From contig JAMPIL010000008.1 of the NCBI GenBank assembly GCA_023662725.1, positions 4,471 to 68,470 on the forward strand: a stretch of DNA of 64,000 nt, read 5' to 3'. The notes under the pieces were generated by a model. It had not been told where the DNA came from. It did not search any database and saw only the letters and a program-made list of their open reading frames with translations. Below, piece by piece: positions 1,956 to 44,381 of this stretch (position 1 is the stretch's first letter; every line of letters starts with the position of its first letter). Made by a program: the position numbers and the translations under genes. Source of the stretch: Ruminococcus flavefaciens. Lineage in GTDB: Bacteria > Bacillota > Clostridia > Oscillospirales > Ruminococcaceae.

Positions 1956-1975
1956 GCGTGTCACGGTGACACACT
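1956..1975 (+). repeat. Dispersed palindrome copy 1 (core GTGTCACGGTGACAC 1958-1972)
   Basis: Exact 15-bp core in intergenic gap after the Maff2-like gene. Confidence 0.95.
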
Positions 1976-2040
1976 GAAATAATATAAAAATGCCGTCACG
2001 ATTTTATTCGTGGCGGCACAATATTCGGGAGGTGATTTAT

Positions 2041-2982
2041 TTGGGAAAAGTAAGCGATGCGATTGATGGTATTAAGGACGGTATTGTAGATGCAATAGAA
2101 GAATTTATACAGAAAACATTAGGCGGCATGATTGAAAGTATTCTTACAACATCAGCAGACTGCCTTGAAACTGCAATTGGAGACGCAAGCAGTAAAGTTT
2201 CTGTAACTCCAAGCGGTTGGCTCAGCGGAAAAATGCCTGACGGTCAGTCGCCATACGAAGTTCTTCAGCAAATTTCCAATGCAGCAATTATGCCGATAGC
2301 TATAGGTATAATGGCGATTATTATCTGCTATGACCTGATTTCAGCTTGTACCGACAAAAACAGTTTCAAGGAATTTGACACATCAATATTTTTTCGATTT
2401 ATTGTCAAAGCGTGGGTAGCAATTTATTTTATGAATAACTGTTTCACTATTTTTTCGGGAATATTCGATATAGGGGCGTCGATAGTCAGCAAAACCACAG
2501 CGATAATTACTTCATCAAACGTTTCTGTGACAAGCCAGTTAGCACAAGTTTTCTCCGGAAAATGGTACACCAATTTCTCTGTTGGACAGCTTTCCACTTC
2601 GCTTTTGCTATCGCTGTTGACCTATATAGCCTCATTAGCTATATTTGTTATTATCATGGTCGTCACGGCTGGGCGAATGATAGAAATAATGATTTATTTC
2701 TGCTCCGCCCCTATTCCATTTGCAACAATGACGAACAAAGAATGGAGTCATATCGGGTTTTCGTTCCTTAAAACACTGTTCGCCTTTGCGCTTCAATCAT
2801 TCATCATAATTGTTATTCTTGTACTGTTTGAAGTCATTTTCAATGCAGAGGTCATAACGGCAATCAGCGATATGGATTCTCTTCCATTAGCACTGCTTAA
2901 GTGGTTGGGTTATGCTACTGTCTGCTGCTTTATGCTTTTAAAATCCGGAAGTATAGCAAAATCAATTTGCGGAACGCATTAA
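2041..2982 (+). CDS. VirB6/TrbL-like polytopic conjugation membrane protein
   Basis: GGAGGTGA SD before TTG 2041; multiple TM segments; GRMIEIMIY..APIPFAT motif typical of Firmicutes ICE VirB6. Confidence 0.8.
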   Translation: MGKVSDAIDGIKDGIVDAIEEFIQKTLGGMIESILTTSADCLETAIGDASSKVSVTPSGWLSGKMPDGQSPYEVLQQISNAAIMPIAIGIMAIIICYDLISACTDKNSFKEFDTSIFFRFIVKAWVAIYFMNNCFTIFSGIFDIGASIVSKTTAIITSSNVSVTSQLAQVFSGKWYTNFSVGQLSTSLLLSLLTYIASLAIFVIIMVVTAGRMIEIMIYFCSAPIPFATMTNKEWSHIGFSFLKTLFAFALQSFIIIVILVLFEVIFNAEVITAISDMDSLPLALLKWLGYATVCCFMLLKSGSIAKSICGTH

Positions 2983-2994
2983 GGAGGTCGAAAA

Positions 2995-3384
2995 ATGGCT
3001 TTATACATGAAAATACCAAAAGATTTGAACAATATCAAAGACACGGTAATGTTCAAAATGACAAAACGCCAGCTCATTTTCAACGCTATAGGCTTAGCAT
3101 TGGGTTTTACAGCATTTTGGCTGACATACAAGCCGCTTGGAACAAGCACGGCAGGAATTTTGCTGTTTTGTCTCGGCTGTCCGTTCTTTATCATGGGAAT
3201 GTACGAAAGAAACGGATTTACGCTTGAAAAAATATTGCTGAACTTTATACGGTACAAGCTCTGTCCGCAGATACGACCGTATAAGACGGAAAACATTTAC
3301 CGTAAAATTGCGGAAGAAATTGAATACAAGAAAGAGGTGGAAATGCTTGAAACAGTCAGAAAAAAAGTCAAACTCAAAAACTAA
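2995..3384 (+). CDS. prgI: PrgI-family (VirB3-like) protein
   Basis: IPKDLNNIKDTVMFKMTKRQL N-terminus, two TM helices, directly before virB4. Confidence 0.85.
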   Translation: MALYMKIPKDLNNIKDTVMFKMTKRQLIFNAIGLALGFTAFWLTYKPLGTSTAGILLFCLGCPFFIMGMYERNGFTLEKILLNFIRYKLCPQIRPYKTENIYRKIAEEIEYKKEVEMLETVRKKVKLKN

Positions 3385-5833
3385 GACCGTGCCGCTTTCA
3401 AAACAGGAATATGAAGCTGTCAAGCAAAGTGTTTCGGCAAAAGAAAAACAGCGGAACGCCGTTAAATTGCCGCAAACCGCACAGCAGTCCATACCCTTTG
3501 ACTATATGACCAAAGACGGTATTGCGGTATCAAGCGAACATGAAAAATTTTCGCTTATTGCATTTCTGTTCGGAAAAAAGAAGCCGACGGAAATAAGGTA
3601 CAGCAAGACGGTACAGTTTTACGACGTTGATTACGAAATAGCGGAAATTTCAAAACAGCAGAATATTTTCGCTAAATACTGCGGTCTGCTGAACTGCTTT
3701 GACAGCAGTGTGAAATTTCAGATTTCCGTTGTGAATGTCACAAACGACGATGATTTTGAGGACATAATAGAGCTGCCGGAACGTAACGACGATTTCAACG
3801 ATATTCGCAAGGAATACTGCGATATGCTCCGTGAAAAGCTTGCAAAGGGCAATAACGGCTTTATCCGTGTGAATTATATAACCTTTTCCGTAACGGAAAA
3901 AAATATAAACAAGGCACGTCAGCAGCTCACGGGAATTGAAAAAGACGTTATCCGTGCATTAAGGTCATTCGGCGTGGCGGCTGTTCCGCTGAACGGAGAG
4001 GAAAGGCTGTTTGCACTGTACAAAATGCTTCACCAATACTCAAACGACACGTTTCTGTGCGATTTTGACAGTATGTCCGAAGCCGGATATATGCCAAATG
4101 ACTACATTGCGCCGTCCTCGCTTAATTTCTCCAAAAAAGACGAGTTCAAGTGCGGAAATTTCTGCGGCTCTACATTTTCAATCAATTTGCTTGCTTCGGA
4201 AGTATCGGACAGATTTCTTTCAGACCTTATGGACACGGAAAATCCCATAGCTTTCAATATGCACTTTACGGCGGTGGATAACCTTGAAGCTAAAAAATTC
4301 GTCAAACTGAAATTATCCAACGTTGAAAAAATGAAAGTTGACGAACAGAAAAAAGCGGCACAGCAAGGCTACGATATGGACATTCTTCCTCCCGACATGA
4401 AAACATACATCAATGAACTTAACGTTCTGCTTGACGATTTGGAAAACAAAAATGAGAGAATGTTCCTTGTGACTATCCTTGTAACCAATTTTGCCAAAAG
4501 CGGAAAAATGCTGAACGTGTGCAACGACAGACTTAATCGTATCGTTTTACAGGCAAATTCACAGCTTATTCCTCTTGACTATCGGCAGGATTTGGGACTT
4601 GCTTCAATTCTTCCCCTTGCGGAAAACAGGATTGAAATAGAACGTCGCCTGACTACAAGCTCGGCTGCTATTTTCCTGCCATTCTCCACAAAAGAAATTT
4701 TTATGGGCGGTGAAGCCGTGTATTACGGTCTTAATCAGATTTCCGACAATATGATTATGGCTGACAGAAAACAGCTTGACAACCCTAACGGTATAGTATT
4801 GGGTGTTCCGGGCGGCGGTAAGTCGTTTCAGGTCAAATGTGAAATAGCTCCGGTTTTTCTGTTCACAAACGACGATATTATGATTTGCGACCCCGAAGAT
4901 GAGTATCATCCGCTTGTCAAGGAATTTCATGGACAGGTCATTGAGATTTCAACCGACAGCTCAGACTATATAAATCCCATGGATATTGACCGAAACAGCG
5001 GCGAGGAAGATATTATCGGCGTAAAATCGGAGTTTATTATCTCTCTTTGCGAACTTGTTGCAGGAGGAAAATACGGACTTGACCCGCAGGAAATTTCAAT
5101 TATCGACCGTTGTGTACGAAATCTGTACATAAACTTTTTTTCGGAAATGGAAAATGCGACCGAGGAAGAATTCAAGGCAAATATGCCGATTTTAGGCGAT
5201 TTGCAAAAGGCTCTTATTGAGACCGGAGAAGATTACGCAAGGCGTGTTGCAAATTCCCTTGAAATTTACGTTACTGGTTCTCTGAATATTTTCAATCACC
5301 GCACAAACGTTGATTTGAAGAACCGTATCGTCTGCTACAACATCAAAAAGCTGAAAAATACACTCAGAAAGCTCGGTATGCTGATAGTGCAAGACCAAGT
5401 ATGGAACAAGGTTTCAATGAACCGCGGCAAAAAATCAACATGGTACTACATGGACGAATTTCACTTGCTGCTCAAGGAGGAACAGACCGCAAAATATTCC
5501 GTTGAGATGTGGAAACGTTTCAGAAAATGGGGCGGTATTCCTACCGGACTTACGCAGAATGTAAATGATTTTCTTTCATCGAAAGAAGTCGAATCCATTT
5601 TTGACAATTCCTCGTTTGTCATAATGCTGAAACAGGCGGTCGGAGACGTTGACGTGCTTGCACAAAAACTGAAAATTTCTCCCTCGCAGCAGAAATATAT
5701 TGAAAGCACTGTGCCGAGGGGCAGCGGACTTATTTACTATGGCGGAAGTATTCTTCCATTCAACAACCGTTTCCCGACTGATACAAAGCTTTACGGACTT
5801 ATGACAACAAAGCCGCAGGAAAGCATGATTTGA
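3308..5833 (+). CDS. virB4: VirB4-like conjugative ATPase (true start may be TTG near 3348)
   Basis: Walker A GVPGGGKSF, DPEDEY, Walker B MDEFH, RKWGG motif. Confidence 0.92.
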   Translation: MRKKLNTRKRWKCLKQSEKKSNSKTKTVPLSKQEYEAVKQSVSAKEKQRNAVKLPQTAQQSIPFDYMTKDGIAVSSEHEKFSLIAFLFGKKKPTEIRYSKTVQFYDVDYEIAEISKQQNIFAKYCGLLNCFDSSVKFQISVVNVTNDDDFEDIIELPERNDDFNDIRKEYCDMLREKLAKGNNGFIRVNYITFSVTEKNINKARQQLTGIEKDVIRALRSFGVAAVPLNGEERLFALYKMLHQYSNDTFLCDFDSMSEAGYMPNDYIAPSSLNFSKKDEFKCGNFCGSTFSINLLASEVSDRFLSDLMDTENPIAFNMHFTAVDNLEAKKFVKLKLSNVEKMKVDEQKKAAQQGYDMDILPPDMKTYINELNVLLDDLENKNERMFLVTILVTNFAKSGKMLNVCNDRLNRIVLQANSQLIPLDYRQDLGLASILPLAENRIEIERRLTTSSAAIFLPFSTKEIFMGGEAVYYGLNQISDNMIMADRKQLDNPNGIVLGVPGGGKSFQVKCEIAPVFLFTNDDIMICDPEDEYHPLVKEFHGQVIEISTDSSDYINPMDIDRNSGEEDIIGVKSEFIISLCELVAGGKYGLDPQEISIIDRCVRNLYINFFSEMENATEEEFKANMPILGDLQKALIETGEDYARRVANSLEIYVTGSLNIFNHRTNVDLKNRIVCYNIKKLKNTLRKLGMLIVQDQVWNKVSMNRGKKSTWYYMDEFHLLLKEEQTAKYSVEMWKRFRKWGGIPTGLTQNVNDFLSSKEVESIFDNSSFVIMLKQAVGDVDVLAQKLKISPSQQKYIESTVPRGSGLIYYGGSILPFNNRFPTDTKLYGLMTTKPQESMI

Positions 5834-5834
5834 G

Positions 5835-8800
5835 GTGAGTTATGTGAGCAACCGTGACGAACAGTTATTAGCGTTGGAAGCTGCTGTGAAAAGTGCGGAA
5901 AGCAAGCTTAAATCAGCAGAAATGACGGTAAAGGACGTTGATGGGAAAATAAAGTCAGCTGACGAGGCTTTTGAACAAAAGCTTGCCGAAAAAGCGGCAG
6001 GATACAAGGAGCAGACGGGAGCTGATTTCAGCCGTACAGTTGATGAAAACGGCAGAGTTACCTACTCTTTCAGCCGTGAAAAAACGGAAAAAGAGCGGAA
6101 CAAGAGCCGCAATCTGACGATAAAACGGTCTTTTGACAGCGAAACGGGAAAAGTCAAACATAAAATAGAGCTTACCGACAACGGCAGTCAGACTGTCGCT
6201 GTAAATTCGGCAAAAGACCTGAAAAAGCCTAAGAACAGAAAAAGATATATTGCATATAACCTGTTCGGCTATCGGAAACTGGAGTTAAGCACAGAGGTCA
6301 ACAATCCGTTTCTGAATACTGTCGGAAAGCCGATAATTGTTCCGATTCAGACCGCAGCTCGGCTTGCGGAAAAATTCAAAGATACCGCCGCAAAAGTTGC
6401 TGACAGCTCTGTTGGAAGAGGTGTTTCTGACGCTGCTAAAATTGTTTCCGCTCCAATCGTTATTCCTGCAAAAATAGTCAAGGATATTGCGGATAAAGGC
6501 GGAGTGATACACGCTGTTACCGATTTGGGCAGCAAAATCAAAATTGAGGGATATAACGTTCCAAAGCCATTGAAAACAGGACTTCATGCCGCTTCATCGG
6601 CAGCAAAGGGAGCTGAAACGCTTACGGTAGGCACGGCTAAAGGCTTGAAAAAATTCTCTGTCGAAATCGCTAAAGAGCAGTTATATCAGAAAATTCACGA
6701 GGGCATATCGGAAAACGAGGGTACTCAGGCGGCTTATGTTATCGGTATCAGAGCCGTTGACGTTTACAAGGTTCTCAACGAACACGCAAAATTCCGAAAA
6801 GCCGTAAGGAGAGACAAGGCAGGAAACGACGTTAAGGACGTGAATGTTTCGCGCTATCTTGCGGAAAAGGAAGAAGCCAAATTTGCTAAGGTTCAAGACA
6901 GACTTGAAGCGGAAAGAGCAGCCGCCGATTATTCGGCGGACAATGCAAGAAAAGAATACGAAGCGGCAAAGAAAAGAGAAGAAATTGCCAATTCGATTTC
7001 TAAAAAAGGTGCTGAAAAAAAGGACACAGAAAAAAATCCCAGCAAAATTGATAAAGAAATTGAAAAAACAAAACAAAAACTAAGGTCTGCTCAGAAGCAT
7101 AAATACAAGCTAAGCATGAAGCCTGTTTTTGACGAAAAAAAGGGCAAAATTGTTACTAAACCGACAGTCAAGAGAGTGGAAATTACCGGAGAAAAGCCAA
7201 TGACGGCTTTGCAGACAGGTAAGAAACTCGGAGGACTTGCAGTTCGTGACACTGCTATGAGTATGCGCCGAAAGGCAATGAGAGACGGCGGCGATAATGC
7301 AGGAGTTGAAGCCGCTAATTTTGCAATTACAGCTTCTCAGCAGACAAGGAGAGCCGCTAAAACATTAAATGAAAAAGTACGGCAGTTTTCGGAACGACAC
7401 TATGAGCAGAAGCTTCAAAAACTGAACAATGCGAAAAAGCTTGAAGAACAGACCGTTCCAAAGAGTAAAGCATATGAAAAAAAATCACCGGATAAAAAAA
7501 GAAAAAAGAAATCCGGAAATCAGAAGCATATGCAGAAAAAGAAAATTCAGAGGAAAGTCTATAATCGCAAAAAGAAGGAAAGAGAAGTTTTCAAGAGCAT
7601 TGTGAACGATGTTAAGGGTTTCGTTTTCAAGCAGTTAAAAGGTGCGGGAATTGTGATTGCCGGAATTATGGCTGTCGTTCTTCTGCCTATGCTGTTTCTT
7701 ACAATGTGCGGCGGTGGCGGCGGTCTCGCTTCATCAGGTGTATTTAAGAGTCCGCTTGACTTATATGACATTGGTTCTATAGACCTTTATTACACAGAGC
7801 TTGCAAAGGATATGATTGACACTCACCAAAATATTGAAAGTTACTATGTCGATTATGACAAATATGTTTGTCTTACGGAAATAAGTGAAATCAGTCATTC
7901 TCCCGCAAAACTTTTACCGTGCGTTACGGCTGATATGGAGTACCCTATTGTCGACGAAATGACGAAAGACTGGTTATTAGACAGTGCTAAATCGGAAGTT
8001 GAAGAAATTTTCAACGCACAGTATGAATTTTACACAAATGAAATTCATGAGGTGAGAAAAAATGTTACGACCGTTACATACTCGAACGAGGACAGTTATT
8101 ATTCCGCTTTCGGCACTTCCGAATATAACCTTGAAAGACCGGAGGGAGCGAATATTCCAAATCCGCTGAAATCCGAATATTATACGGGATATGCCAATAC
8201 CTACACTCATGTGGAAGTGCCGATAATAAACGGATATATTGAAAATACGCTTGATTGTATAGGCGTTTACACGGACGAAAACGGTCAGACCACGGAATAT
8301 GAGGATATGCAGACAATGACGTTCTATAACTTTTGGCAGATAACTCTTGTGTTTGATTATATGGACGACGGCGAATATCAGGAATACTGGAAATACACAG
8401 AACAGCGGCAGGAGTATTTTGAGTACGACTACTATATCCTTGAATATGCTATCAGGGAAAACAACATTGAAGTGCCTGACAGCTACTGGTCTGATACCGA
8501 TGAAAACTGGCAGGACAATAATTTTAACAGGCTGATTTACAATATAGTTTCGGATATGGACGGAGAAGAACAGGCATTTTTCTACGGATACCTTGCGTTC
8601 AATATGGGGCGGCAGATTTTCAAAAGTCCGTTTTTGGATGCTCAGATAGCAAAATATCCGGGATACAACACTGATATTTACGGAGATATGTCGCTTGAAA
8701 ATAGCATTATTTTCTACTCCTCGGCAGGGCAGGAAATAGTATGTGGCACTGACGGCGAAATCACTGTAACAGATAACGGTTTTTCTGTATATAACAAAAA

Positions 8801-10555: not shown

Positions 10556-10576
10556 AGTGTGTCACGGTGACACACT
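10556..10576 (+). repeat. Dispersed palindrome copy 2 (AGTGTGTCACGGTGACACACT)
   Basis: Perfect 21-bp palindrome 7 bp after a stop codon, followed by the hairpin ATCCGTCCC...GGGACGGAT. Confidence 0.95.
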
Positions 10577-10681
10577 GAAAAATCCGTCCCGTTTTTGGTC
10601 GGGACGGATAAAATCAATGGGTAATGTATATTATATCCTATTTATTAGGGTTTGTTAATAGAAAAATTTAAATTTTGAAAG

Positions 10682-13919: not shown

Positions 13920-14096
13920 ATGAAAAAAAGAATTGCAAAAAAGCAGCTTAAACGCTCGTTAAACATACCTGTTCTTGCGTTCAGAACAGGCGGATTGCCG
14001 AATAGTTACACCTGTCCTCGCTGCGGAAACCGTAATATACAAGAGCCGTGCTGCTTTAAATGCGGTCAGAGGATTTATTTTGAGGAAAGAGTGTGA
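13920..14096 (+). CDS. Small zinc-ribbon protein
   Basis: YTCPRCG...CFKCGQRI; ATG 5 nt after the topB stop. Confidence 0.6.
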   Translation: MKKRIAKKQLKRSLNIPVLAFRTGGLPNSYTCPRCGNRNIQEPCCFKCGQRIYFEERV

Positions 14097-14116
14097 AGTG
14101 TGTCACGGTGACACAC
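14097..14116 (+). repeat. Dispersed palindrome copy 3
   Basis: AGTGTGTCACGGTGACACAC begins at the base after the stop codon. Confidence 0.95.
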
Positions 14117-14135
14117 CGGAAAGGAAAAATCTGTT

Positions 14136-14830: not shown

Positions 14831-14851
14831 AGTGTGTCACGGTGACACACT
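14831..14851 (+). repeat. Dispersed palindrome copy 4
   Basis: Perfect 21-bp palindrome. Confidence 0.95.
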
Positions 14852-14959
14852 ATCTCATTAATAAAGGATGGTTATTTATATTTTTTATTATGACAATCAA
14901 AGAAATAAAGGAAGATATTAAAAATGTAAATCAAACGGAAGATTGCGACCAAAATTAAT

Positions 14960-14977
14960 TGTGTCACGGTGACACAC
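14960..14977 (+). repeat. Dispersed palindrome copy 5
   Basis: TGTGTCACGGTGACACAC. Confidence 0.95.
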
Positions 14978-15059
14978 GACATAATAAACGCACCAATTAA
15001 CACACGAATATAATCCCTTTGGGGTTATAAAATATAAAAATAAAAGGAGCAAAAAATCT

Positions 15060-16947: not shown

Positions 16948-17712
16948 ATGGAACATATTTTGTCTCTCAGCTACGGCAAGGACAGTCTTGCCTGTTTGGG
17001 GGCAATTGAAAAATTGGGGTGGCAGCTCGACAGGATAATTCACGCTGAGATATGGGCAACAAAAACCATTCCTGCCGACTTGCCCCCAATGGTTGAATTT
17101 AAAGAAAAAGCTGACAGAATCATAAAAGAACGTTATAGCTTGACTGTTGAACACATTACTGCCGATGATACATACGAAGATATATTTTTCCGCACTTATG
17201 CTAATGGCAAAAATAAGGGTATTATATACGGTTTCCCTTGTATAAAAGGCAACTGGTGCAACAGTAAACTAAAAGTAAAAGCAATCAATAAATGTAAAAC
17301 TGACGGTATTCAATATATCGGGATAGCTTATGACGAACCAAAAAGATTTAAGGTTTTGGACAGCTTTAAAATATCTCCCCTTGTATCTGCAAAATGGACT
17401 GAGAAAATGTGTTATGACTGGTGTATGGAAAATGATTTGCTTTCTCCAATATATAACACGTCAGCTCGCGGCGGCTGTTGGTTCTGCCATAATCAGAGCG
17501 TAGATCAGCTTCGCATACTTCGTAAAAGTTATCCCGATTACTGGAAGCTGCTCCTCCAATGGGACAGCGTTTCCCCTATTTCCTTTAAGCCTGAACATAC
17601 CGTACTTGACTATGAAAAGCGTTTTCAGCTTGAAGATATGGGACTGATATATCCAAACGACAGGCGTTTCCGGTGGGAATGGGTAAAATCATATTTTGAA
17701 AATCATACATAA
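16948..17712 (+). CDS. PAPS reductase-family (PP-loop) protein
   Basis: SLSYGKDS PP-loop; RGGCWFC C-terminal motif. Confidence 0.85.
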   Translation: MEHILSLSYGKDSLACLGAIEKLGWQLDRIIHAEIWATKTIPADLPPMVEFKEKADRIIKERYSLTVEHITADDTYEDIFFRTYANGKNKGIIYGFPCIKGNWCNSKLKVKAINKCKTDGIQYIGIAYDEPKRFKVLDSFKISPLVSAKWTEKMCYDWCMENDLLSPIYNTSARGGCWFCHNQSVDQLRILRKSYPDYWKLLLQWDSVSPISFKPEHTVLDYEKRFQLEDMGLIYPNDRRFRWEWVKSYFENHT

Positions 17713-17713
17713 G

Positions 17714-17733
17714 GTGTGTCACGGTGACACACT
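17714..17733 (+). repeat. Dispersed palindrome copy 6
   Basis: GTGTGTCACGGTGACACACT between a stop codon and the next SD. Confidence 0.95.
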
Positions 17734-23700: not shown

Positions 23701-26700
23701 GGAAAGTGAGAGAATTTGTACGCCAATTCTTGAAACAGCGGACGAAAATGGCAGACCAACAAGCTATTCCACTAAATATAACGATAAATTTTATTGGATA
23801 AGCGAAAACGCTGACGGTAAGTACGATATTGAAACGGATTTCGGCAATGGTATCGTAAACGTAGGTGAGGAATATTCTGATTTTCCTGCAAGGTATCTTG
23901 CGGAAGAAGCCTTTGAGGACTATATTGCCGACGTTCTTTCAGCCGAACATGAAGCGGAAATAACCGAACCGCAGAATGAACCATTCTTGGAGGAAATAAG
24001 CGGCAATAACGGCACTGTCAAATATAAGGTCACGGAGAACGCTGACGAGCAGTACAAATACAATGTACAGATATTTACTCAGGGCGAAAACGGCGAATTT
24101 TATTACAGCGGCAGCGGTCGCTTCTGCGAAACACTCGATGAAGCTCATGCATTTATTGAAAATGATATTGCAGAGCGTACCGCCGAAAAGGATAGACAAC
24201 ATTCCGTTAAGGACGAAATTCCCGGAAACGATAAACATAACATTTCACAAGGACAGATGTCATTGTTCGATGATATTCCGGATACAGAGGAATTTTCCAA
24301 TGAAAAAAACTATCAGGTTGTCACCTATTCTAATGATTCGGGTGCAGATGATAAAAAGGATTTTCCTACACTGGACGAAGCCGTTGAAAAAGGCAGAAGT
24401 TATTTGTATGACAGGGAATACGAGGGTTATTATTCGGGCATTGCAATTCTTAACACAAAAGAACACAAGGTTGAATATTATGAGGGCGATTTCCCGTTAG
24501 AGGGTATTTTCAGCGAACAGGTATATCAAAACAGCGGTGAATGGCAACGTGTTGAAGCAACACCAAACGTATTTGACACGAATGCTCCGGGAGCTATGAA
24601 AACGGAACAGGCAAGACTTATGAATGAAAAAAGTGCCAATAAGTTAATTAAAAGCGGCGAAGTGGACATTCCTCTGCCACAGGATTTAGCTGCTCCGATA
24701 CAGTTTGAACAGTCTCCTTTAAATGCAGAGCGTGTCACGGTGACACACTCCGAAGCTTCGGCAGCTCCTGCCGAAGAAGTGGTTAAAACTCTCGACCTTG
24801 AAAATGACAAGCCGGAAGAAAAGAAGTCCGATAACCTTTTCCGCATAACAGACGGGCATTTGGGCGAGGGCAGCAAAAAAGAAAAATTCAAGAACAATAT
24901 TGAAGCTATAAAAACGCTGCAAATACTTGAAGCAGAAGAACGTGCTGCCACTCCCGATGAACAGGAAACATTATCAAAATATATCGGCTGGGGCGGTTTG
25001 CAGGAAGCCTTTGACGATTCAATCTCCGCTTGGAACGCCGAATATCACGAACTCAAAAATTTTATTTCCGAAGAAGAATACGAAGCCGCACGGTCTACCG
25101 TAAACGACGCATTTTACACCTCCCCTGTCATAACTCAGGCAATTTATGAGGGACTTGCTAATATCGGCTTTAACGGCGGCGAAGTACTTGAGCCGTCAAT
25201 GGGCATTGGAAACTTTTTCGGAACTATGCCCGATAAAATGCGTGAAAACAGTAATCTGTCGGGAATTGAAATTGACAGCATTTCAGGACGTATCGCACAA
25301 AAACTCTATCCCGAAGCCAACATTGCCATAAACGGTTTTGAAAATGTAAAGCCGCCGAAAGCTACTTTTGATTTGGCAGTCGGCAACGTTCCTTTCGGAA
25401 ATCACGGTGTAAACGACAAAACAAAAGTATATAAAGGACTTCTTATACACGACTATTTCTTTGCAAAATCACTTGACAGCGTTCGTCCGGGCGGTGTGGT
25501 ATCTTTTGTAACTTCAACAGGCACGCTCGATAAAGAAGATACGAAAGTCCGTCAAATGCTTGCACAAAAGGCGGAGCTTATGGGCGCGGTCAGACTGCCA
25601 AACAACGCTTTTCAGAAAAACGCAGGAACGCAAACGGCAACCGATATTATATTTTTGAAAAAGCGTGAAAAACCGCTTAATATCGGCGATATGCCTATGG
25701 ACAAATCCTGTGATTGGGTGCATACAAAGGAAAACTCCGACGGTCTTAAGATAAACAGCTATTTTGCCGACAATCCCGAAATGGTTTTAGGCGAACTTTC
25801 CGACAAGGGACGTTTCGGCAGTATAATCTGCACTCCGATTCAGGGCGCAGACCTTAAAGAGCAGCTCCATGAAGCTATGAAAAATATCAAGGGAGAGTAC
25901 TCTCCTCTTGAATTTCAGGCTGAACTTGACGAACGTGCGGAAAATAGCTACTTAACCGCAACTCCCGATATTGAAAATCTGACCTATACGGTTGTGGACG
26001 ATAAACTGTATTTCCGTGTTGACGATAATCTTATTCCGCTGAAAGAAAGCGAACAGCACGGAGTTACCGCCGAAAGGCGCAAAGCAATGAGCGGTCTTGG
26101 CGAAACTACCCGTGAACTTCTTCAGGCACAGGTCGAGGACAGACCCGACAAGGAAATAAAGCTGCTGCAAGCGGAGCTTAACGTTAAGTATGACAAATTC
26201 GTTCAGAAATTCGGACGGATAAATCCTATTGAAACGCCTAACCCACGAAATGCAAGCGGCGTTACAAGAAAAGCACCAAACAGCAACGTTTTCAAAAACG
26301 ACGTAAGACTTCCCCTTTTGCAGTCCCTTGAAAAAATGAAAGAGGGACAGTTTGTCGGTAAAACGGCTATTTTTACCGAAAGAACTATACGTCCCCGTAA
26401 AGTCGCAGAACACGTTGATACCGCACATGAAGCATTGATTTTGTCAATGTCCGAAAAGGGAAAAATTGATTTTGATTATATGCAGGACTTGACAGGCTTT
26501 GAGAAAGAAAAAATAATTTCCGATTTGCACGGTGACATCTACCCTGTTCCCGAACTTTCCACGGAAGATAACACTGTGTATCAAACAAGCGATGAATATT
26601 TATCGGGCAATATTTACAAGAAAATAGCTATGGCAGAAGCAAAAATATCCGAAAATCCTGCCTACGCTGAAAACGTTGCGGCTCTGACAGAAGTAATACC

Positions 26701-30136: not shown

Positions 30137-30141
30137 TACAG

Positions 30142-30187
30142 TCCCCCGAATGCACATTTACGGTGCGTTCGGGGGATATTTTTTTGT
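30142..30187 (+). terminator. Rho-independent terminator closing the transfer operon
   Basis: TCCCCCGAA...TTCGGGGGA stem followed by a T tract. Confidence 0.85.
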
Positions 30188-30413
30188 TGAAAAAATAAAG
30201 CAATTATGATATACTTATTACAGTATTAATAGTTTAATGATATAACATTATTACAATGTGAAATAACACCTGTTTAACGTTGAAAAAGCGACACGATTTT
30301 GTGCAGCTATACAAAAATATTATTATTTCAAAAAAATTCGAAAGAAAACAACACTTACAAGGCATTTATATATGGAAAATTGAAAGTGAAGCGAATTTAA
30401 GGAGCAAATATAT

Positions 30414-32241: not shown

Positions 32242-32262
32242 AGTGTGTCACGGTGACACACT
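32242..32262 (+). repeat. Dispersed palindrome copy 8
   Basis: Perfect 21-bp palindrome starting at the base after the stop codon. Confidence 0.95.
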
Positions 32263-37802: not shown

Positions 37803-37831
37803 TAAAAAAATAACTCTGCAAAGCAGAGTTA
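37803..37831 (-). terminator. Terminator between ncRNA copy A and the PBECR4 gene
   Basis: AACTCTGC-TTT-GCAGAGTT hairpin followed by T7 on the minus strand, just before the AGGTGA SD. Confidence 0.8.
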
Positions 37832-37850
37832 AATTTTGCACTGTTTTTTT

Positions 37851-37980
37851 CAGCATTTCTGCCTAAGACAGGTATGGATTATGCCTACCACGCCAAAGCT
37901 CCATGTAAACCCCCTGACACTGCGTACACTTCATAGCTTAGCAATCCCGATTACTTACGGGCAATGCTTGATTTTCATCA
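37851..37980 (-). ncRNA. Putative structured ncRNA, copy A (candidate RNA antitoxin)
   Basis: Near-duplicate of 38107-38237 with conserved stems and no conserved ORF; bounded by promoter and terminator. Confidence 0.7.
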
Positions 37981-37985
37981 TTTAT

Positions 37986-38014
37986 ATTATATGCTATTTT
38001 TCCGGATTTGTCAA
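37986..38014 (-). promoter_or_regulatory. Consensus sigma-A promoter TTGACA-17-TATAAT
   Basis: -35 at 38014-38009, -10 at 37991-37986. Confidence 0.9.
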
Positions 38015-38059
38015 GTGTTTTTTGAAAAAATATCAGCAAAATATTTGGAAATATTAATA

Positions 38060-38090
38060 ATAAAAAGCGGCTCTGAAAACAGAGCCGCTT
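38060..38090 (-). terminator. Terminator after ncRNA copy B
   Basis: AAGCGGCTCTG-TTTT-CAGAGCCGCTT hairpin plus T tract. Confidence 0.85.
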
Positions 38091-38106
38091 ATTGCATATT
38101 TTCTTT

Positions 38107-38237
38107 CAGCATTTCTGCCTACGTCAAGTCTGGTTTCTATGCAACCACTAAAGCTCCATGCACACCTCTTGACTCCTGCGTGACACTTCATGGCTTAGCA
38201 ATCCCGATTACTCACGGGCAATGCTTGATTTTCATCA
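38107..38237 (-). ncRNA. Putative structured ncRNA, copy B
   Basis: See copy A; repeat period about 257 bp. Confidence 0.7.
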
Positions 38238-38242
38238 CTTAT

Positions 38243-38271
38243 ATTATATGCTATTTTTTCGGATTTGTCAA
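38243..38271 (-). promoter_or_regulatory. Consensus sigma-A promoter TTGACA-17-TATAAT
   Basis: -35 at 38271-38266, -10 at 38248-38243. Confidence 0.9.
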
Positions 38272-38528: not shown

Positions 38529-38675
38529 ATCCTGTCACTATATTTTGTCTTTATTATTATACCATAATATGTATAATCCGTCAAGTTTTTTCTACGAAAT
38601 ATTTATAATAACAGTTTGTTAATATTTTCCCGATTTAAAAATATCATCGTGGCACACCGATAAATATACATTTTG

Positions 38676-39418: not shown

Positions 39419-39447
39419 TTGACGAAAGGAAAGTGTTGTGTTATAAT
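39419..39447 (+). promoter_or_regulatory. Sigma-A promoter TTGACG-17-TATAAT, antisense to the local operon
   Basis: Direct sequence match. Confidence 0.75.
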
Positions 39448-39453
39448 AACACT

Positions 39454-39525
39454 GTCGGACACCTTTCGTCCGTCGGACAGGGCAGAACCGGAAGTGTGGA
39501 GCTTGGCGGTCTGTCCTGTTTTTTA
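39454..39525 (+). ncRNA. Putative antisense small RNA (about 70 nt)
   Basis: Between the above promoter and hairpin GGACAGGGCAGAACCG...CGGTCTGTCC plus T6. Confidence 0.55.
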
Positions 39526-39532
39526 TTTTAGA

Positions 39533-39551
39533 AGTGTGTCACCGTGACACA
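39533..39551 (-). repeat. Dispersed palindrome copy 9 (central C on plus strand)
   Basis: AGTGTGTCACCGTGACACA. Confidence 0.95.
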
Positions 39552-39558
39552 TTTTTCG

Positions 39559-39960: not shown

Positions 39961-39973
39961 TATTGTCTCCTTT

Positions 39974-40315
39974 TTATTTGTTCTGTTCTTTTATTTCGCT
40001 GTTAAAAAAGTCAATCAGAATTTCCTGAGATATGCTCGCGGCGTCGGCAAGCAGCATTATCTCTTGTATCGAATCGGCAATCTTGCTTAAATACAGTTCC
40101 TGAGCGTTTTCCTTGCAGTTTTCGGTAAGTATGTAGCCGTTGGATTTAGTGCGGCTCACAATATCATTCTCCACAAGAATTTTAAAAATAATTCCCATTT
40201 GCTTTGGGGCAAGATTGTAATCTCTCGTAAAAATATATTCTCCGGATTTCTTTTTTCCCGACGTTATCGAGTAGATTATCTCGTTTAAAGTCATTTCTTG
40301 TTTTGTCATATTCAT
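39974..40315 (-). CDS. GntR-like winged-helix protein
   Basis: ITSG..KSGE...YNL...LVENDIVSRTKSNGY wHTH pattern. Confidence 0.55.
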   Translation of the reverse strand: MNMTKQEMTLNEIIYSITSGKKKSGEYIFTRDYNLAPKQMGIIFKILVENDIVSRTKSNGYILTENCKENAQELYLSKIADSIQEIMLLADAASISQEILIDFFNSEIKEQNK

Positions 40316-40321
40316 TGCTAT

Positions 40322-40582
40322 TTACTCCTTTTCATGTAATTGCTTTTCGACTGATTGGCAACTTTTTTCATTATAATATTTTATATCATTTTGACTTAAA
40401 AGTCCATATATTGTAAGACCAATACCTGAAATAATTAAATATAGCCACAACTCACAATCTAAAGCCATTGTGAGTACAACACTGTATATAAATGCATATA
40501 TTTTTGTTGTTATTCTGAATTTCTCACATCTGAGTACGCAAATAAAGAATATAAATGCTAAAAATCCAAATATTATTTTCAT
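40322..40582 (-). CDS. Small membrane protein
   Basis: Coupled ORF with hydrophobic helices. Confidence 0.45.
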   Translation of the reverse strand: MKIIFGFLAFIFFICVLRCEKFRITTKIYAFIYSVVLTMALDCELWLYLIISGIGLTIYGLLSQNDIKYYNEKSCQSVEKQLHEKE

Positions 40583-40845
40583 TGCGGTTTATTCTGCTCC
40601 TTTCTCCAATGCTTTTCAGCTTCTTTGCCGACGATATTTGTCAAATTATTGCCGAGATATTTATCACAATCACGACAATAACATTTTCCTGAATAGCTAT
40701 GCCCCAATCCATCATACATATCATAGTTAGCGGCTTCTTCACCATTAAACAGACTGTTAAACTCAATCTTGCCTTTAACAGTCTGTTTTTCGTAATACAT
40801 TTCACAACCGCAAAACGGGCAGCACGTTAATTCTTCAAATTTCAA
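40579..40845 (-). CDS. Small zinc-binding protein
   Basis: CPFCG and YCRDC pairs. Confidence 0.55.
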   Translation of the reverse strand: MKFEELTCCPFCGCEMYYEKQTVKGKIEFNSLFNGEEAANYDMYDGLGHSYSGKCYCRDCDKYLGNNLTNIVGKEAEKHWRKEQNKPQ

Positions 40846-40862
40846 GGTTCAATCCTCCATAG

Positions 40863-40883
40863 AGTGTGTCACCGTGACACACT
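40863..40883 (-). repeat. Dispersed palindrome copy 10
   Basis: Perfect 21-bp palindrome abutting the stop codon at 40884. Confidence 0.95.
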
Positions 40884-41360
40884 TCATTTAATCGGTGTGA
40901 TTTCATAAATCTTACCGTCAATTTCGGTTGTGACACCTACTGTAGTTTCCTCATGCGTGTTTACCGGTGGCTGCGGAATGTTTTCTTTAGGCGTTACAGT
41001 ATAAACACCATTTTTGAAATCAAAAATTTCATATTTTTCATAAAACTCATTTATATCCACGTTTTTGTCAAGAACAACTTCATATTTTCCAGTTGGCTTT
41101 TGAAATTTTTGGGGTATTATAGATGTCACATCTATTATTTCTATGACAACAGAATATGTAAAAACAAGAGCAAGACCTAATATACATCCAATAATCTCAT
41201 AAACACATGAGTATTTTATCTTAGACAAAAACATTCCTCCAAAAAGGAATAGACAGCCTAATACCATTATAATGAGAAAAATAACTAATAATAAAGCAAA
41301 CCCTATTCCACTTAATTCAGTACACTCTTTGATGAGAGATACTCCGTCCATAAATTCCAT
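40884..41360 (-). CDS. Two-TM membrane protein (phage/ICE type)
   Basis: Two TM helices then DINEFYEKYEI motif. Confidence 0.55.
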   Translation of the reverse strand: MEFMDGVSLIKECTELSGIGFALLLVIFLIIMVLGCLFLFGGMFLSKIKYSCVYEIIGCILGLALVFTYSVVIEIIDVTSIIPQKFQKPTGKYEVVLDKNVDINEFYEKYEIFDFKNGVYTVTPKENIPQPPVNTHEETTVGVTTEIDGKIYEITPIK

Positions 41361-41392
41361 TGTTCATTTTCCTTTCCAATGTATTTGTTCCG

Positions 41393-41968
41393 TCAATCAT
41401 TATTTACTGTAAAAGACATTTCTATTGCTATTTTTGCTTTGTCACAATAATCGCTTGATGTGAAGTTTTGCCACATAACAAAACAATACCCTACAACGTA
41501 AATAATCGCAAGAAATATAACTACTGCTGTTATATCAATTGAATTGATAAATATGCCTAATATAGCAAGCGCAAGTATAAAAATAAGTATTGGAATAAAC
41601 CACCGCAAAGATTCTTTCATTTTAGCTTTTTTGGTTGCTTTACTGTCAATAGAAATAAAACTGTCAAATATATCAAGGTCATAGCTGTCTTGCTCTCCTA
41701 CGATAAAGCAGTCTAATGTAGTTTCCTCAGACTTATTTTCTCCGTCTGTGAGAATACAAAAAAATTTATAAGAATTTTCGGAAAGATTATCAATCTGCAT
41801 TTCCTGTCCGTAATATTCGTCTAAACAATGTATTTCCGCAATGATCAGAATGTCTCCTTTTTCATAAATTTTATTTCCAATTCTTAATTCTTCAAGAATG
41901 GTTACCTTTGCGCCTACTTTATATGGCGTTCCTGCGATTTTTGTTATGTTTTCAACTATTTCTTTCAT
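41393..41968 (-). CDS. Hypothetical protein, SH3-like N-terminus plus two C-terminal TM helices
   Basis: GGAGG SD before ATG 41968. Confidence 0.55.
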   Translation of the reverse strand: MKEIVENITKIAGTPYKVGAKVTILEELRIGNKIYEKGDILIIAEIHCLDEYYGQEMQIDNLSENSYKFFCILTDGENKSEETTLDCFIVGEQDSYDLDIFDSFISIDSKATKKAKMKESLRWFIPILIFILALAILGIFINSIDITAVVIFLAIIYVVGYCFVMWQNFTSSDYCDKAKIAIEMSFTVNND

Positions 41969-42130
41969 GATTATCCTCCTGTTCAAAGTCGTTGTATTTG
42001 TTGAAATAATAATGATATTCATAAAAGCCTTGTTCAAACCCTACATCGTAACTTATATAAGCAATTATTACTACTATAACAATCATTATGGCAATAAAAA
42101 TAAAGATTTTTAACATTGCTTTTCCTTTCC

Positions 42131-42153
42131 GAGTGTGTCACCGTGACACACTC
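42131..42153 (-). repeat. Dispersed palindrome copy 11 (23 bp), overlapping the parB stop codon
   Basis: GAGTGTGTCACCGTGACACACTC; parB ends GAG AGT GTG TCA CGG TGA. Confidence 0.95.
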
Positions 42154-43061
42154 TCAAAATATTCCGTCAACAGCTTTTCCGCAAGCTCGTCAAGCTCTTG
42201 TTCGCTCTTGTCAATTGCAAACCTTAAAAAAATATTGTTATAAACATTGCTCCTGTATTTCTTCAAAGGTTTCGGCGCAAGCAGCTTTGTAAACTCATGG
42301 AACGGAACGTCCTCGCTGCCGTAATTCTCTACGATTTGAGCAAATTCCTTTGCAATTTCGGGAGTGATTTTCTTGCTGTCGGGACGTGAAAGAAAATTCA
42401 AAACGGCTTTTTGATTTTCCTCAGAAAATGCCGCTATGATTTCAGCGGCGGCAAGCTGAATTTTTCCCTCGTCTGCATATTTCTGTAAATGAACATTCAG
42501 ACTTGCAACGCTTATGTAACGGTACATGGTCTTTTTTGATACTCCAAACTTAGCGGCAATTTCTGCGGCTGTCATATCGGTATCGTCACGCTTCTCCATA
42601 TATGCGGAGAATATTTTTCCGTACTCGCTGGGCAAGGCTCTGTCCCTCTGAATGTTGCTCTCGGCAACAAATTTAAAGGCTTCATCGTCCGTGATTTTCC
42701 TGACCACGCAAGGCACAGACAGCAGATTAAGCTGCCGCGCCGCTTCGTAGCGGTGATGTCCTGCAATTATCTGATAATTGCCGCCGTCCGTCCTGCGTAC
42801 TATCAAAGGCGTTACAATGCCTATATCCTCGGCACTTGCCATAATCTGAGCTATCTTGTCACTGTTTAGATTAAAAGGCTGTGAGCCGCCTTTCTCGTCC
42901 TCATAGTGGTGCAGCAGATTAAGCTCGATACTTTCAACCTTTTCAAAGGAACTGCCCCATACATTCGCGTAAGCCTGTCCCAGTCCCGACATTGTGTCCG
43001 TAGCTTCTTCCGCTTCCAAATTATCAGGCTCGGAGAAGCTTGAAATATTTATTTTTCCCAT
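42138..43061 (-). CDS. parB: ParB-family protein (own SD and ATG, in frame with the upstream radical SAM ORF)
   Basis: AGAAAGGA SD before ATG 43061; GIVTPLIVR, IIAGHHRYEAA (GxxR), ESNIQR, HTH AAEIAAKFGVSKKTMYRY. Confidence 0.85.
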   Translation of the reverse strand: MGKINISSFSEPDNLEAEEATDTMSGLGQAYANVWGSSFEKVESIELNLLHHYEDEKGGSQPFNLNSDKIAQIMASAEDIGIVTPLIVRRTDGGNYQIIAGHHRYEAARQLNLLSVPCVVRKITDDEAFKFVAESNIQRDRALPSEYGKIFSAYMEKRDDTDMTAAEIAAKFGVSKKTMYRYISVASLNVHLQKYADEGKIQLAAAEIIAAFSEENQKAVLNFLSRPDSKKITPEIAKEFAQIVENYGSEDVPFHEFTKLLAPKPLKKYRSNVYNNIFLRFAIDKSEQELDELAEKLLTEYFESVSR

Positions 43062-43979
43062 ATTCCTGTCCTTTCTGTAAATATTATGCCGTCTGCAATA
43101 ATTATCCCATGTTTCACTGCGAAATTTGCCACTGTAAATAAACCTTTGTGCAAATTCCAACTGGATTTTATTAGGAATAATACCTTTGCTTTCGTTCCGT
43201 TCCGCTTGGGCATAAAGCGTTATGCCCTTGAATTTCTTTAACCGTTCGGCTCTTTCGGCTGCATTATCAACGTCCTTTGTAACCAACAGATAAATAAACA
43301 GCCTATAAGGTTTAACATCGTATTTCATAAGAAGCTCCGCTGCGTTTTCAATAGCCTTGATTTGCGCCAAAGTATCGCAGCTGAACCGAATGTATTTTAT
43401 CCATTCCAGCCGTGAGAGTATCTGAGCTATTCTGTCGGTCACAAGACGCGCGTCCATACCCTGATTAAGGTCAATGGCATAACCGCTGTCAATAAGACTC
43501 TCAAGCTGTCCTATACCGTATTCGCTTGCAAGAATGTTGTTGTCCATAAGTACAAGCTTGCTGCTGTCCGGTCTTACAAGCTGCTCCCATGTTCTGTACG
43601 GCTTTATACCGCCCTCTTTTTCGGGTACAACACACCAACGGCAATGATTGGGACAGCCCCTTGTGATGTAGCCCATAGCATAGTCGCATTCGGGATAAAT
43701 GCCGTAGTCGGGGAACATTTCCTCAATCTCGGCAGAAAGAACGGAATGTATATCATATCCCGTTCCACCCTTGATAGTATCAAGCGGCAGCAGAGGATTT
43801 TCGGGCGTGAAGTCAAAAATCTTGCTTGAATAAACCCTGTCGTATTTTTTCTCAGGCTGCCACCATTCAACGGTATCTCCGACCGACTTGTGATAAGCCG
43901 ATATTTTCATCAGCGCATAATTCGGGAACGTCTTTCTTTTCAGATATTCCCTTTCGCTGTCGTGCAAAGCGATATTCAT
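42138..43979 (-). CDS. Radical SAM protein read through in frame into ParB (613-aa fusion ORF)
   Basis: TRGCPNHCRWC = CxxxCxxC; FPNYALMKISAYHK N-terminus typical of mobile-element radical SAM proteins; no stop before parB. Confidence 0.75.
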   Translation of the reverse strand: MNIALHDSEREYLKRKTFPNYALMKISAYHKSVGDTVEWWQPEKKYDRVYSSKIFDFTPENPLLPLDTIKGGTGYDIHSVLSAEIEEMFPDYGIYPECDYAMGYITRGCPNHCRWCVVPEKEGGIKPYRTWEQLVRPDSSKLVLMDNNILASEYGIGQLESLIDSGYAIDLNQGMDARLVTDRIAQILSRLEWIKYIRFSCDTLAQIKAIENAAELLMKYDVKPYRLFIYLLVTKDVDNAAERAERLKKFKGITLYAQAERNESKGIIPNKIQLEFAQRFIYSGKFRSETWDNYCRRHNIYRKDRNMGKINISSFSEPDNLEAEEATDTMSGLGQAYANVWGSSFEKVESIELNLLHHYEDEKGGSQPFNLNSDKIAQIMASAEDIGIVTPLIVRRTDGGNYQIIAGHHRYEAARQLNLLSVPCVVRKITDDEAFKFVAESNIQRDRALPSEYGKIFSAYMEKRDDTDMTAAEIAAKFGVSKKTMYRYISVASLNVHLQKYADEGKIQLAAAEIIAAFSEENQKAVLNFLSRPDSKKITPEIAKEFAQIVENYGSEDVPFHEFTKLLAPKPLKKYRSNVYNNIFLRFAIDKSEQELDELAEKLLTEYFESVSR

Positions 43980-44380
43980 TACTCATCTGTAGTAATCAGT
44001 TTTTTGTATTTGCGATATAGGATTTCTAACTGAATTTCAATCTGTTTTTTTGCTACGTATGAGCCGTATTCTTTCTCAAATTGCAAAAACATATTTCCAA
44101 AATCTGTTTCGGGAACATTGTAAAGTCTTTCCGACATATTGATACAATTAACTGTTGCTCCTCTTACACTGCTTTCTAAGCATTCATAAATGACAAATCC
44201 GATTACAAAGCCAATCATAAAAAATACGTTTTCAAATGCAAAAGCGAATACAACAAACGCTATTGCAGCTAAACCTGAAATTAAATAAGCGGATTTAATC
44301 CGTTCTTTTTTTGAAAAAGAGTTTAGCACTTCTTCATAATCCATATCTAATATTTTCCTTTCTGTGTCACCGTGACACAC
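43979..44380 (-). CDS. Two-TM membrane protein (start probably near 44350)
   Basis: ORF with two hydrophobic helices. Confidence 0.5.
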   Translation of the reverse strand: MCHGDTERKILDMDYEEVLNSFSKKERIKSAYLISGLAAIAFVVFAFAFENVFFMIGFVIGFVIYECLESSVRGATVNCINMSERLYNVPETDFGNMFLQFEKEYGSYVAKKQIEIQLEILYRKYKKLITTDE

Positions 44381-44381
44381 T
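44363..44381 (-). repeat. Dispersed palindrome copy 12
   Basis: TGTGTCACCGTGACACACT between a stop codon and the next SD. Confidence 0.95.

Follow-up and report, generated by a model that had tools for sequence, protein, structure and literature searches.

Dispersed gene-junction palindromes as probable parS-like sites of an element-encoded ParB in a Clostridia-type integrative conjugative element

What does a short, perfect palindrome do at one gene junction after another of a mobile element, and which molecule reads it? We addressed these questions in the window, a stretch of 64,000 nucleotides (64 kb) from Ruminococcus flavefaciens contig JAMPIL010000008.1, of which bases 1–53.9 kb are one Clostridia-type integrative conjugative element (ICE). 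Judged from sequence comparison, and with a probability that we put at about 0.7, the palindromes are double-stranded parS-like recognition sites of a ParB that the ICE itself encodes. A pattern scan of the window for GTGTCACSGTGACAC (GTGTCAC-S-GTGACAC, the 15-bp core) found 12 exact matches, as against 0.00 expected in 100 shuffles; these are precisely the 12 copies, at the same coordinates, that an earlier note on this DNA had listed. Allowing 1–3 mismatches added no further copy within the 64-kb window. The ‘degenerate copy’ that the note had also counted at 38644-38658 has four mismatches, and with four such 15-mers in the window against 5.9 expected it is at chance level. Read in gene orientation, all 12 copies have the form (A)(G)(T)GTGTCAC-G-GTGACAC(A)(C)(T). 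The three positions flanking the core on either side are conserved in 9–12 of the 12, which gives a sharp-edged unit of 19–21 bp (A-G-T, the 15-mer, A-C-T); further out the copies share no homology, the pairwise identity of their 12-nt flanks being 3.8–4.0 of 12. A literature search for the palindrome sequence returned no paper containing it.

The sites are spaced 0.1–8.6 kb apart across the transfer and accessory region. As the earlier note had it, 11 of them lie at gene junctions, between a stop codon and the next ribosome-binding site (RBS), and one of these overlaps the parB stop; the twelfth lies in a linker inside an open reading frame (ORF) of 3129 amino acids (aa). The 21-mer directly follows the stop codon at five of the 11 junction sites, and at five sites 17–21 nt separate the end of the core from the next start codon. 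This stop-to-RBS geometry leaves most sites without room for a promoter, and sigma-70-like promoter matches in the window are not enriched at the sites. The sites, the ParB fusion protein and the ParA are as follows.

Site 1, 1955..1975 (core 1958-1972), plus strand: between a Maff2-family gene and a TrbL/VirB6-like gene.
Site 2, 10556..10576 (core 10559-10573), plus strand: 9 nt past the stop of a 121-aa ORF.
Site 3, 14097..14117 (core 14100-14114), plus strand: the 21-mer adjoins the stop at 14096, followed by the RBS and ATG of a DUF5052 gene.
Site 4, 14831..14851 (core 14834-14848), plus strand: 3′ of the DUF5052 gene.
Site 5, 14958..14978 (core 14961-14975), plus strand.
Site 6, 17713..17733 (core 17716-17730), plus strand: adjoins the stop at 17712.
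Site 7, 24729..24749 (core 24732-24746), plus strand: in frame within the 3129-aa SNF2-helicase/methylase ORF.
Site 8, 32242..32262 (core 32245-32259), plus strand: adjoins the stop of a 152-aa gene downstream of sigma/DUF4367.
Site 9, 39533..39553 (core 39536-39550), minus strand: 8 nt past the stop of a 133-aa gene.
Site 10, 40863..40883 (core 40866-40880), minus strand: adjoins the stop of a 158-aa gene, followed by an RBS and start.
Site 11, 42132..42152 (core 42135-42149), minus strand: includes the TGA stop of the ParB fusion gene, which ends ..ESVSR.
Site 12, 44361..44381 (core 44364-44378), minus strand: borders a 1.2-kb segment of four genes that the close relative L077 lacks.
ParB fusion protein, 42138..43979, minus strand: 613 aa, radical-SAM-like domain plus ParB; the proposed reader of the sites.
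ParA-type ATPase, 45548..46336, minus strand: matches to AAA_31, CbiA and ParA, and to NF041546.

The gene that ends in site 11 encodes the candidate reader. From M307 onwards (MGKIN..., the peptide with which standalone 299-aa ParBs of other elements start) the 613-aa protein has a complete ParB, that is, a ParB_N domain with GHHR and ESNIQR motifs and then a helix–turn–helix (HTH) with the recognition helix S481-KKTMYRY. Pfam matched ParB_N at 3e-15 and HTH_ParB at 5e-5, and NCBIfam TIGR00180 scored 77.6 bits on the ParB module (cutoff 58.45). A phmmer search of the PDB ranked M. xanthus ParB, Spo0J and Noc best at about 1e-13, aligned through the HTH, with KorB at 6e-4, and Foldseek with the predicted fold again returned the ParB/Spo0J/Noc set at probability 1.0. 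GHHR (G407, R410) and ESNIQR (E440, N442, R445) are invariant in 14 homologues. The ParA gene stands five genes upstream of parB in the same minus-strand block, an order repeated in the relatives L121, L122, L124, L319–L322, L126 and L228 (L-numbers denote metagenomic and genome contigs, found by a tblastn census among other means). By sequence and predicted fold, then, the protein carries a true ParB-family DNA-binding module with a neighbouring ParA. Its residues 1–305 form a radical-SAM-like domain in which C109-x3-C113-x2-C116 is invariant among homologues. Because the AlphaFold model of this N-terminal domain is poor (predicted local distance difference test score <50 for residues 1–129), the radical-SAM assignment draws on the CX3CX2C motif and weak PF04055 matches. 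Homologues of this promiscuous domain in other elements are standalone (about 340–390 aa) or have as fusion partners an ABC ATPase, C5 and MT-A70 methyltransferases, PAPS reductase, VirD4 or a ParB with an RNA-polymerase-alpha-CTD-like segment.

The palindrome itself resembles the known targets of such proteins. Its half-site TGTGTCAC matches the canonical parS half-site TGTTTCAC at seven of eight positions and the arms are set one base pair further apart, which bears out the likeness to parS with a 1-bp spacer that the earlier note had seen; the window site is thus odd and 17–21 bp long, and differs from the even 16-bp parS (TGTTNCACGTGAAACA). As far as sequence can tell, the locus has the parts of a ParABS system: a ParB fold with an HTH, an adjacent ParA and a palindrome at the par operon that matches the specificity of the ParB.

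We then compared site positions across related ICEs. Contigs with full-length homologues of the fusion are syntenic ICEs, and their window-type half-sites recur at gene junctions, typically at the 3′ end of parB and very often at its stop codon. The half-sites are constant, and the central 3 bp vary (CGG, TGA, CGA, CCG, CAG, TGG, TCA, TTA, TTT, CTC and TTC), so that the conserved element is (G)TGTCA-N3-TGACA(C). Constant half-sites around a variable centre are the signature of a dimeric DNA binder that leaves the centre uncontacted. Most loci with a ParB module 34–95% identical to that of the window and the helix S[KRP]K[TS][MIL]YRY contain exact TGTCA-N3-TGACA (L077, L121–L125, L319–L321, L228/L329 and L253/L327). 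L127 and L328 have one-mismatch copies only, and in the 17.8 kb of L326, another ParB-module homologue, there is no TGTCA-N3-TGACA. L228 is a separate integrative element (tyrosine integrase, parA, the site, standalone parB) in which no other obvious ICE genes of the window recur. Of 80 metagenomic loci (722 kb) whose only common part with the window is the radical-SAM domain, none contains such a site. The palindrome is linked to the ParB module and not to the radical-SAM domain.

The strongest evidence comes from relatives in which helix and palindrome have changed together. In every aligned TGTCA-type ParB module, down to 31% overall identity, the helix reads S-K/R/P-K-T-M/I-Y-R-Y (the helix of L326–L328, outside the module alignment, is SKKSLYRY). 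The ParB module of L322 is 58% identical to that of the window, closer than several TGTCA-type ParBs, and has the helix SIPTFSRY; its palindrome is ATCGTTCAC-G-GTGAACGAT (CGTTCAC-G-GTGAACG), found immediately downstream of the parB stop and again at a distance of 5 kb (9657 and 14763). L324 has the helix STTTMYRY and the palindrome AATTCCCAC-C-GTGGGAATT (TTCCCAC-C-GTGGGAA), twice at the 3′ end of parB (3873 and 3910). In L126 and L323 the radical-SAM domain is 78% identical and the ParB module 27% identical, and the palindrome is ATTCGCCA-A-TGGCGAAT (TTCGCCA-A-TGGCGAA); L126 has six copies (1297-8053), one of which encodes the last codons of parB, and the helix GKDSVARL. There are thus four palindrome specificity classes that co-vary with the ParB recognition helix (the class 3 site, with the IPTFS helix, is ATCGTTCACGGTGAACGAT and the class 4 site, with the TTTMY helix, is AATTCCCACCGTGGGAATT), and each has a palindrome at or beside the parB stop codon. 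In characterised ParBs the HTH recognition helix enters the major groove of parS, and four interface residues switch specificity between ParB and Noc, that is, between parS and the Noc-binding site (NBS) (PMC7383237). More than any other observation, this paired change of helix and half-site favours a reading of the palindromes by ParB as duplex DNA.

From these comparisons we infer that ParB binds the palindromes, that it clamps in a nucleotide-dependent manner and that a downstream function follows. The same proposal in the earlier note, of binding sites for the ICE ParB, gains support, at the level of sequence, from the true ParB with its ParA, the 7/8 half-site, the co-variation of helix and palindrome, and the odd-centred palindromes established for ParB-like clamps of other mobile elements, OB of KorB (PMC11790492) and bisS of BisD (PMC12409273). 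Each HTH of a ParB dimer would read one half-site (T)GTGTCA, with the three middle base pairs less constrained. The 12 sites may act as nucleation or loading points from which ParB would come to cover most of the element, spreading, by analogy with related proteins, as a nucleoside-triphosphate-gated sliding clamp. With the upstream ParA, such a complex could partition the excised element and, like KorB on RK2 and BisD on ICEclc, might also exert long-range control of transfer genes. The radical-SAM-like domain would be an enzyme brought to ICE DNA by the sites. The position at gene junctions would follow, since only junctions and protein linkers tolerate a 21-bp palindrome.

Several observations weigh against this reading. 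Box I of the CTPase fold is QPF rather than QPR and box II is GHHR rather than GERR, departures that make the use of cytidine triphosphate (CTP) uncertain; the nucleotide preference of such box variants is not predictable (PMC12704722). In ParB-type CTPase clamps the conserved boxes I, II and III read QPR, GxxR and ENxxR. The spacing of the sites is 1 bp longer than that of parS, and because other ICE genes also differ between the palindrome classes, the co-variation is no proof that ParB is the reader. In a few other elements (L225, L227, L244 and L258) the motif stands at the tip of long terminator-like hairpins, and three of the four L124 sites are followed by T-runs. Furthermore, a symmetric DNA site does not predict the polarity of the centre. 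On the plus strand the centre is G in sites 1–8, in the plus-strand gene block, and C in sites 9–12, in the minus-strand block, so that the coding strand has G in 12 of 12, which chance would give about once in 2,000. The relatives also lean to sense G, by about 26 G to 7 C in our own count of S-centred sites beyond the window, with orientation taken from the next RBS or the flanking genes; these sites are not independent of one another.

The flip of the centre with gene orientation, as the earlier note had described it, is therefore real in this element, and it recurs in L122, L124, L321 and L322. Among relatives it is only a tendency and not a strict rule: the centre is sense C at the orthologues of the window site at 32245 (L319:20153 and L320:11059) and further at L122:11874, L320:6252, L321:6546 and both L324 sites, and L079 and L061 differ at one shared locus. 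We considered three causes. Hitch-hiking with the flanks is ruled out here, as the flanks of the 12 copies are unrelated; hairpin folding energy is −11.0 kcal/mol for G and C centres alike; and GC skew, at about 0.1, is far too weak. A directional influence through the transcript, clamp loading or mutation of an exposed strand is possible. On ICEclc the enrichment of BisD runs in the direction of transcription (PMC12409273), and a link of clamp behaviour to transcription therefore deserves examination.

The polarity had led the earlier note to allow for an RNA-level or a recombination role instead. If the palindromes worked in RNA, each would form, on the polycistronic transcripts, a hairpin of 9–12 bp with a 3-nt loop just 5′ of the next RBS, and a sequence-specific factor would read this hairpin as a signal for processing, stabilisation or translation coupling. 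Such a role would account for the sense-strand G in 12 of 12 and the sense-G lean of the relatives, and it fits the predicted stability of about −11 kcal/mol, the tight order of stop, palindrome and RBS, the pyrimidine-rich sense loops of L124 (three with U-runs after them) and the terminator-like hairpins of other elements. We nevertheless consider it unlikely. The palindrome sequence follows the HTH helix of ParB; the centre flips between orthologous sites; and arm changes are uncompensated both ways, GTATCA giving A.C in the sense strand and TGATAC giving G.U. A wobble test past the 21-mer found no excess of sense G.U over A.C pairs, and the folding energy is the same for either centre. One perfect copy lies within an ORF, far from any RBS, no window copy is followed by a sense U-tract, and terminator-like calls are antisense only (14857-14825, 17732-17714 and 39530-39556). 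No Rfam family was matched at any site, the sole gathering-score match in the window being a drum RNA at 38091-38196 on the minus strand.

Alternatively, the palindromes could be recombination substrates that shuffle small gene cassettes, with the link to ParB secondary; integron attC sites and the repeated intergenic cassettes of T4-type phages are parallels. Homology between the window and L077 breaks at palindromes (window 42132 and 44362; L077 4076/4990), the 1.2-kb four-gene segment that ends in site 12 is in the window and not in L077, sites cluster where small ORFs vary, and in L126 three ORFs share a palindrome-encoded C terminus. These breakpoints fall at gene ends, where they are expected anyway; the copies lack flank homology, sites 1, 3, 6 and 8 lie between conserved core genes, and the serine recombinase is of the ordinary integrase type, with no dedicated recombinase linked to the sites. 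The repeats may favour cassette exchange, but we regard such exchange as a by-product because it leaves the half-site following the ParB helix unexplained, and as a primary role we hold it to be quite improbable. The least probable explanation that we weighed makes the sites operators of another DNA-binding protein of the ICE. Two extracytoplasmic-function (ECF)-like sigma proteins and many small unannotated ORFs offer candidates for a sigma-like factor or small HTH protein, and 7-1-7 inverted repeats are a common operator form. The co-variation, however, is specifically with the ParB helix, including in L322, which is otherwise syntenic and has 58% ParB identity; the standalone parA–site–parB element L228 has no further obvious ICE genes in common with the window; and most sites are too cramped for a promoter, with no enrichment of sigma-70-like matches. 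Taken together, centre flips, uncompensated changes and equal hairpin energy weaken the two alternatives of the earlier note, and none of the causes considered explains the 12/12 polarity.

The IncP plasmid RK2 has 12 OB operators of KorB, dispersed over the whole plasmid as the window sites are over the ICE. As here, they are short, odd-centred palindromes with an S centre (TTTAGC-G-GCTAAA, TTTAGCGGCTAAA; PMC11790492), and the ParB-family protein KorB is encoded beside a ParA (IncC) on a conjugative element; KorB is a CTP-dependent sliding clamp that serves long-range control and partition. The similarity to KorB is nevertheless distant (6e-4, against 1e-13 for chromosomal ParB/Noc), the host here is of the Clostridia type and the ParB has an N-terminal radical-SAM-like domain. 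The window sites lie in stop–RBS junctions without operator–promoter geometry, and no KorA/TrbA partner was noted, although no search for partner proteins was made; the weak KorB match and the lack of promoter space place the sites outside a KorB/OB regulon. BisD of the Pseudomonas element ICEclc is likewise an ICE-encoded ParB-like protein with an extra domain and an odd-centred inverted repeat, bisS (GAGCTATCCCC-n-GGGGATAGCTC, 11-n-11); this CTP-binding protein spreads across about 50 kb of ICEclc (PMC12409273). ICEclc has two bisS sites 2 kb apart, as against 12 dispersed sites here, and the extra domain of BisD is a transcription activator that works with BisC, whereas ours is radical-SAM-like. 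By analogy, the present system is best read as working like KorB/OB and BisD/bisS while being an orthologue of neither.

The closest relatives of the ParB module in sequence and fold are chromosomal ParB/Spo0J and Noc, whose parS and NBS sites are likewise several and dispersed over a replicon, and with which the 7/8 half-site is shared. A few HTH-interface residues reprogram their specificity (PMC7383237), a parallel to the four palindrome classes. The window sites differ in length (17–21 bp, with a centre 1 bp longer, against an even 16-mer) and in being on a mobile element, and the protein differs in being a fusion with the boxes QPF and GHHR. With repetitive extragenic palindromes (REP) and bacterial interspersed mosaic elements, integron attC sites and intrinsic terminators, the palindromes share a position after stop codons, co-orientation with genes and the capacity to fold as RNA or single-stranded DNA. 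Unlike these, the copies are identical, with sharp 21-bp edges and no sense U-tract, are confined within the window to the element and co-vary with a DNA-binding helix. The perfection of the window palindromes also sets them apart from attC sites and from REPs with their associated tyrosine transposase (RAYT), and Pfam and NCBIfam scans of selected window ORFs found no RAYT transposase or integron integrase.

ParB-family clamps that act beyond chromosome segregation (KorB, BisD, VirB and Noc) are a current topic, and to our knowledge the characterised examples on mobile elements all come from Proteobacteria. What is new here is the setting in a Firmicutes-type ICE, the placement of sites at stop–RBS junctions, the number of specificity classes (four or more) and the fusion of the ParB to a radical-SAM-like domain; such a fusion is absent from a recent survey of ParB-fold fusions, in which ‘radical SAM’ occurs 0 times (PMC12704722). 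These gut and rumen ICEs amount to a natural experiment, in which the pairing of the helix variants KKTMY, IPTFS and TTTMY with the half-sites TGTCAC, GTTCAC and TCCCAC constitutes a testable specificity code, and in which an element-wide array of sites takes the place of a single centromere. If the sites control partition or transfer-gene expression, they offer handles to track or perturb the spread of the element, and a polarity that proved functional would add a new property to ParB sites. We offer one wider and doubtful conjecture: in a Clostridia-type ICE family, a radical-SAM–ParB clamp might load at lineage-specific, element-wide sites and carry its enzyme along ICE DNA (for example, for self-marking, repair or anti-restriction), fast switching of helix and site, in at least four classes, might insulate co-resident elements from one another, and the sense bias might reflect an interplay of clamp loading and transcription.

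Individual sites show further features. A stem–loop at 10582-10609 just after site 2 drew a terminator-like call on the minus strand only. Sites 4 and 5 bracket an AT-rich 112-bp spacer (14849-14960) with a possible 22-codon ORF (MTIKEIKEDIKNVNQTEDCDQN) that has its own RBS, a mini-gene candidate. The RBS and ATG of the DUF3991/Toprim primase-like gene lie 19 nt beyond the core of site 6. Site 7 encodes ..AERVTVTHSE.. in a low-complexity inter-domain linker; it is absent from L061, the one relative with DNA for that region, and a homologue search with the surrounding linker returned only fragments spanning the adjacent methylase domain. The position of site 8 is kept in L122, L124, L319, L320 and L322, and that of site 11 across relatives and across palindrome classes. 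A strong promoter-like site on the plus strand (39419-39447, TTGACG-17-TATAAT with TG) has a −10 box overlapped by another 7-1-7 palindrome, GTGTTAT-A-ATAACAC, which lies at 39438-39452, 100 bp from site 9, and is conserved in L077 (3189); an operator or an antisense promoter is conceivable here.

Among the other contigs, three different ORFs of L126 end in the palindrome-encoded residues YFANGE directly before the stop, and one of them also has about 25 C-terminal residues in common with ParB; by sequence, the 3′ end of parB and its palindrome have clearly been duplicated onto another gene. L158/L160 have their own dispersed junction palindrome, GTGCGAC(G/A)TCGCAC. TGTGTCA-N3-TGACACA at L225 9845, L227 1064, L244 7701 and L258 1888 forms the apex of perfect hairpins of 15–19 bp followed by T-runs, which resemble terminators between convergent genes, in elements related to the Hominimerdicola aceti contig L038. 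In three GC-richer phage contigs (L206, L249 and L252, the last with a terminase and NinX), AAAC-TGTGTCAC-N-GTGACACA-GTTT is densely repeated in arrays, for instance seven times in 4 kb; the fetched part of these contigs has no ParB homologue, and the arrays may belong to an unrelated regulator with a similar half-site. A pattern scan of genome contigs gave, among the 125 matches listed, five with the full 21-mer; nearly all matches listed were single chance matches in unrelated high-GC genomes, and the true relatives among them were L010, L038, L063, L077, L079 and L104. L063 and L077, clear homologues of this Firmicutes-type ICE (the ParB module of L077 is 95% identical to that of the window), come from genome bins labelled Alistipes (Bacteroidota), which reflects either mis-binning or cross-phylum carriage. 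The element was found in only two runs of the source organism, as contigs.

The transfer and accessory genes of the ICE encode VirD4 (CD1115 type), Maff2, a TrbL/VirB6-like protein, PrgI, a VirB4-like ATPase, CD1107/CD1108 family proteins, topoisomerase III, a C5 methyltransferase, a DUF3991–Toprim primase-like protein and a giant SNF2 protein; its regulators are two ECF-like sigma proteins and DUF4367, and it has many small unannotated ORFs. The earlier note had seen no site beyond 44.4 kb, and there is none, either in the remaining roughly 9.5 kb of the ICE or in the non-ICE part at 54–64 kb (NrdD with an intein, a cell-wall hydrolase, a methylase and a RecD-like helicase). Its boundary of the ICE at 44.4 kb, however, comes too early, because the ParA, a MobA/VirD2 relaxase, a NikA-like protein and a large serine recombinase follow at 45.5–53.9 kb. 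The anaerobic ribonucleotide reductase gene nrdD (53888-56452, minus strand) is split by an intein with a LAGLIDADG homing endonuclease, and 32 bp separate its 3′ end from the stop codon of the serine recombinase of the ICE, so that integration of the ICE beside or within the NrdD locus is possible. At 30141-30215 the giant helicase gene ends in a strong sense terminator (a 15-bp stem with nine GC pairs and a T-run), and a promoter-like site (TTGAAA-17-TATACT with TG) then precedes the sigma gene; in L320 this helicase–sigma gap, without a site in the window, has the variant TTGTCAC-C-GTGACAA. Finally, the zone where the two ICE gene blocks converge contains two tandem units of about 257 bp with an 89-nt core 96% identical (37820-38271, minus strand). 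Both units possess a terminator (38090-38065 and 37831-37811) as well as a perfect TTGACA-17-TATAAT promoter (38271-38243 and 38014-37986); the gathering-score match to drum RNA (RF02958, 48.4 bits) falls on the upstream unit, and the second is a diverged copy.

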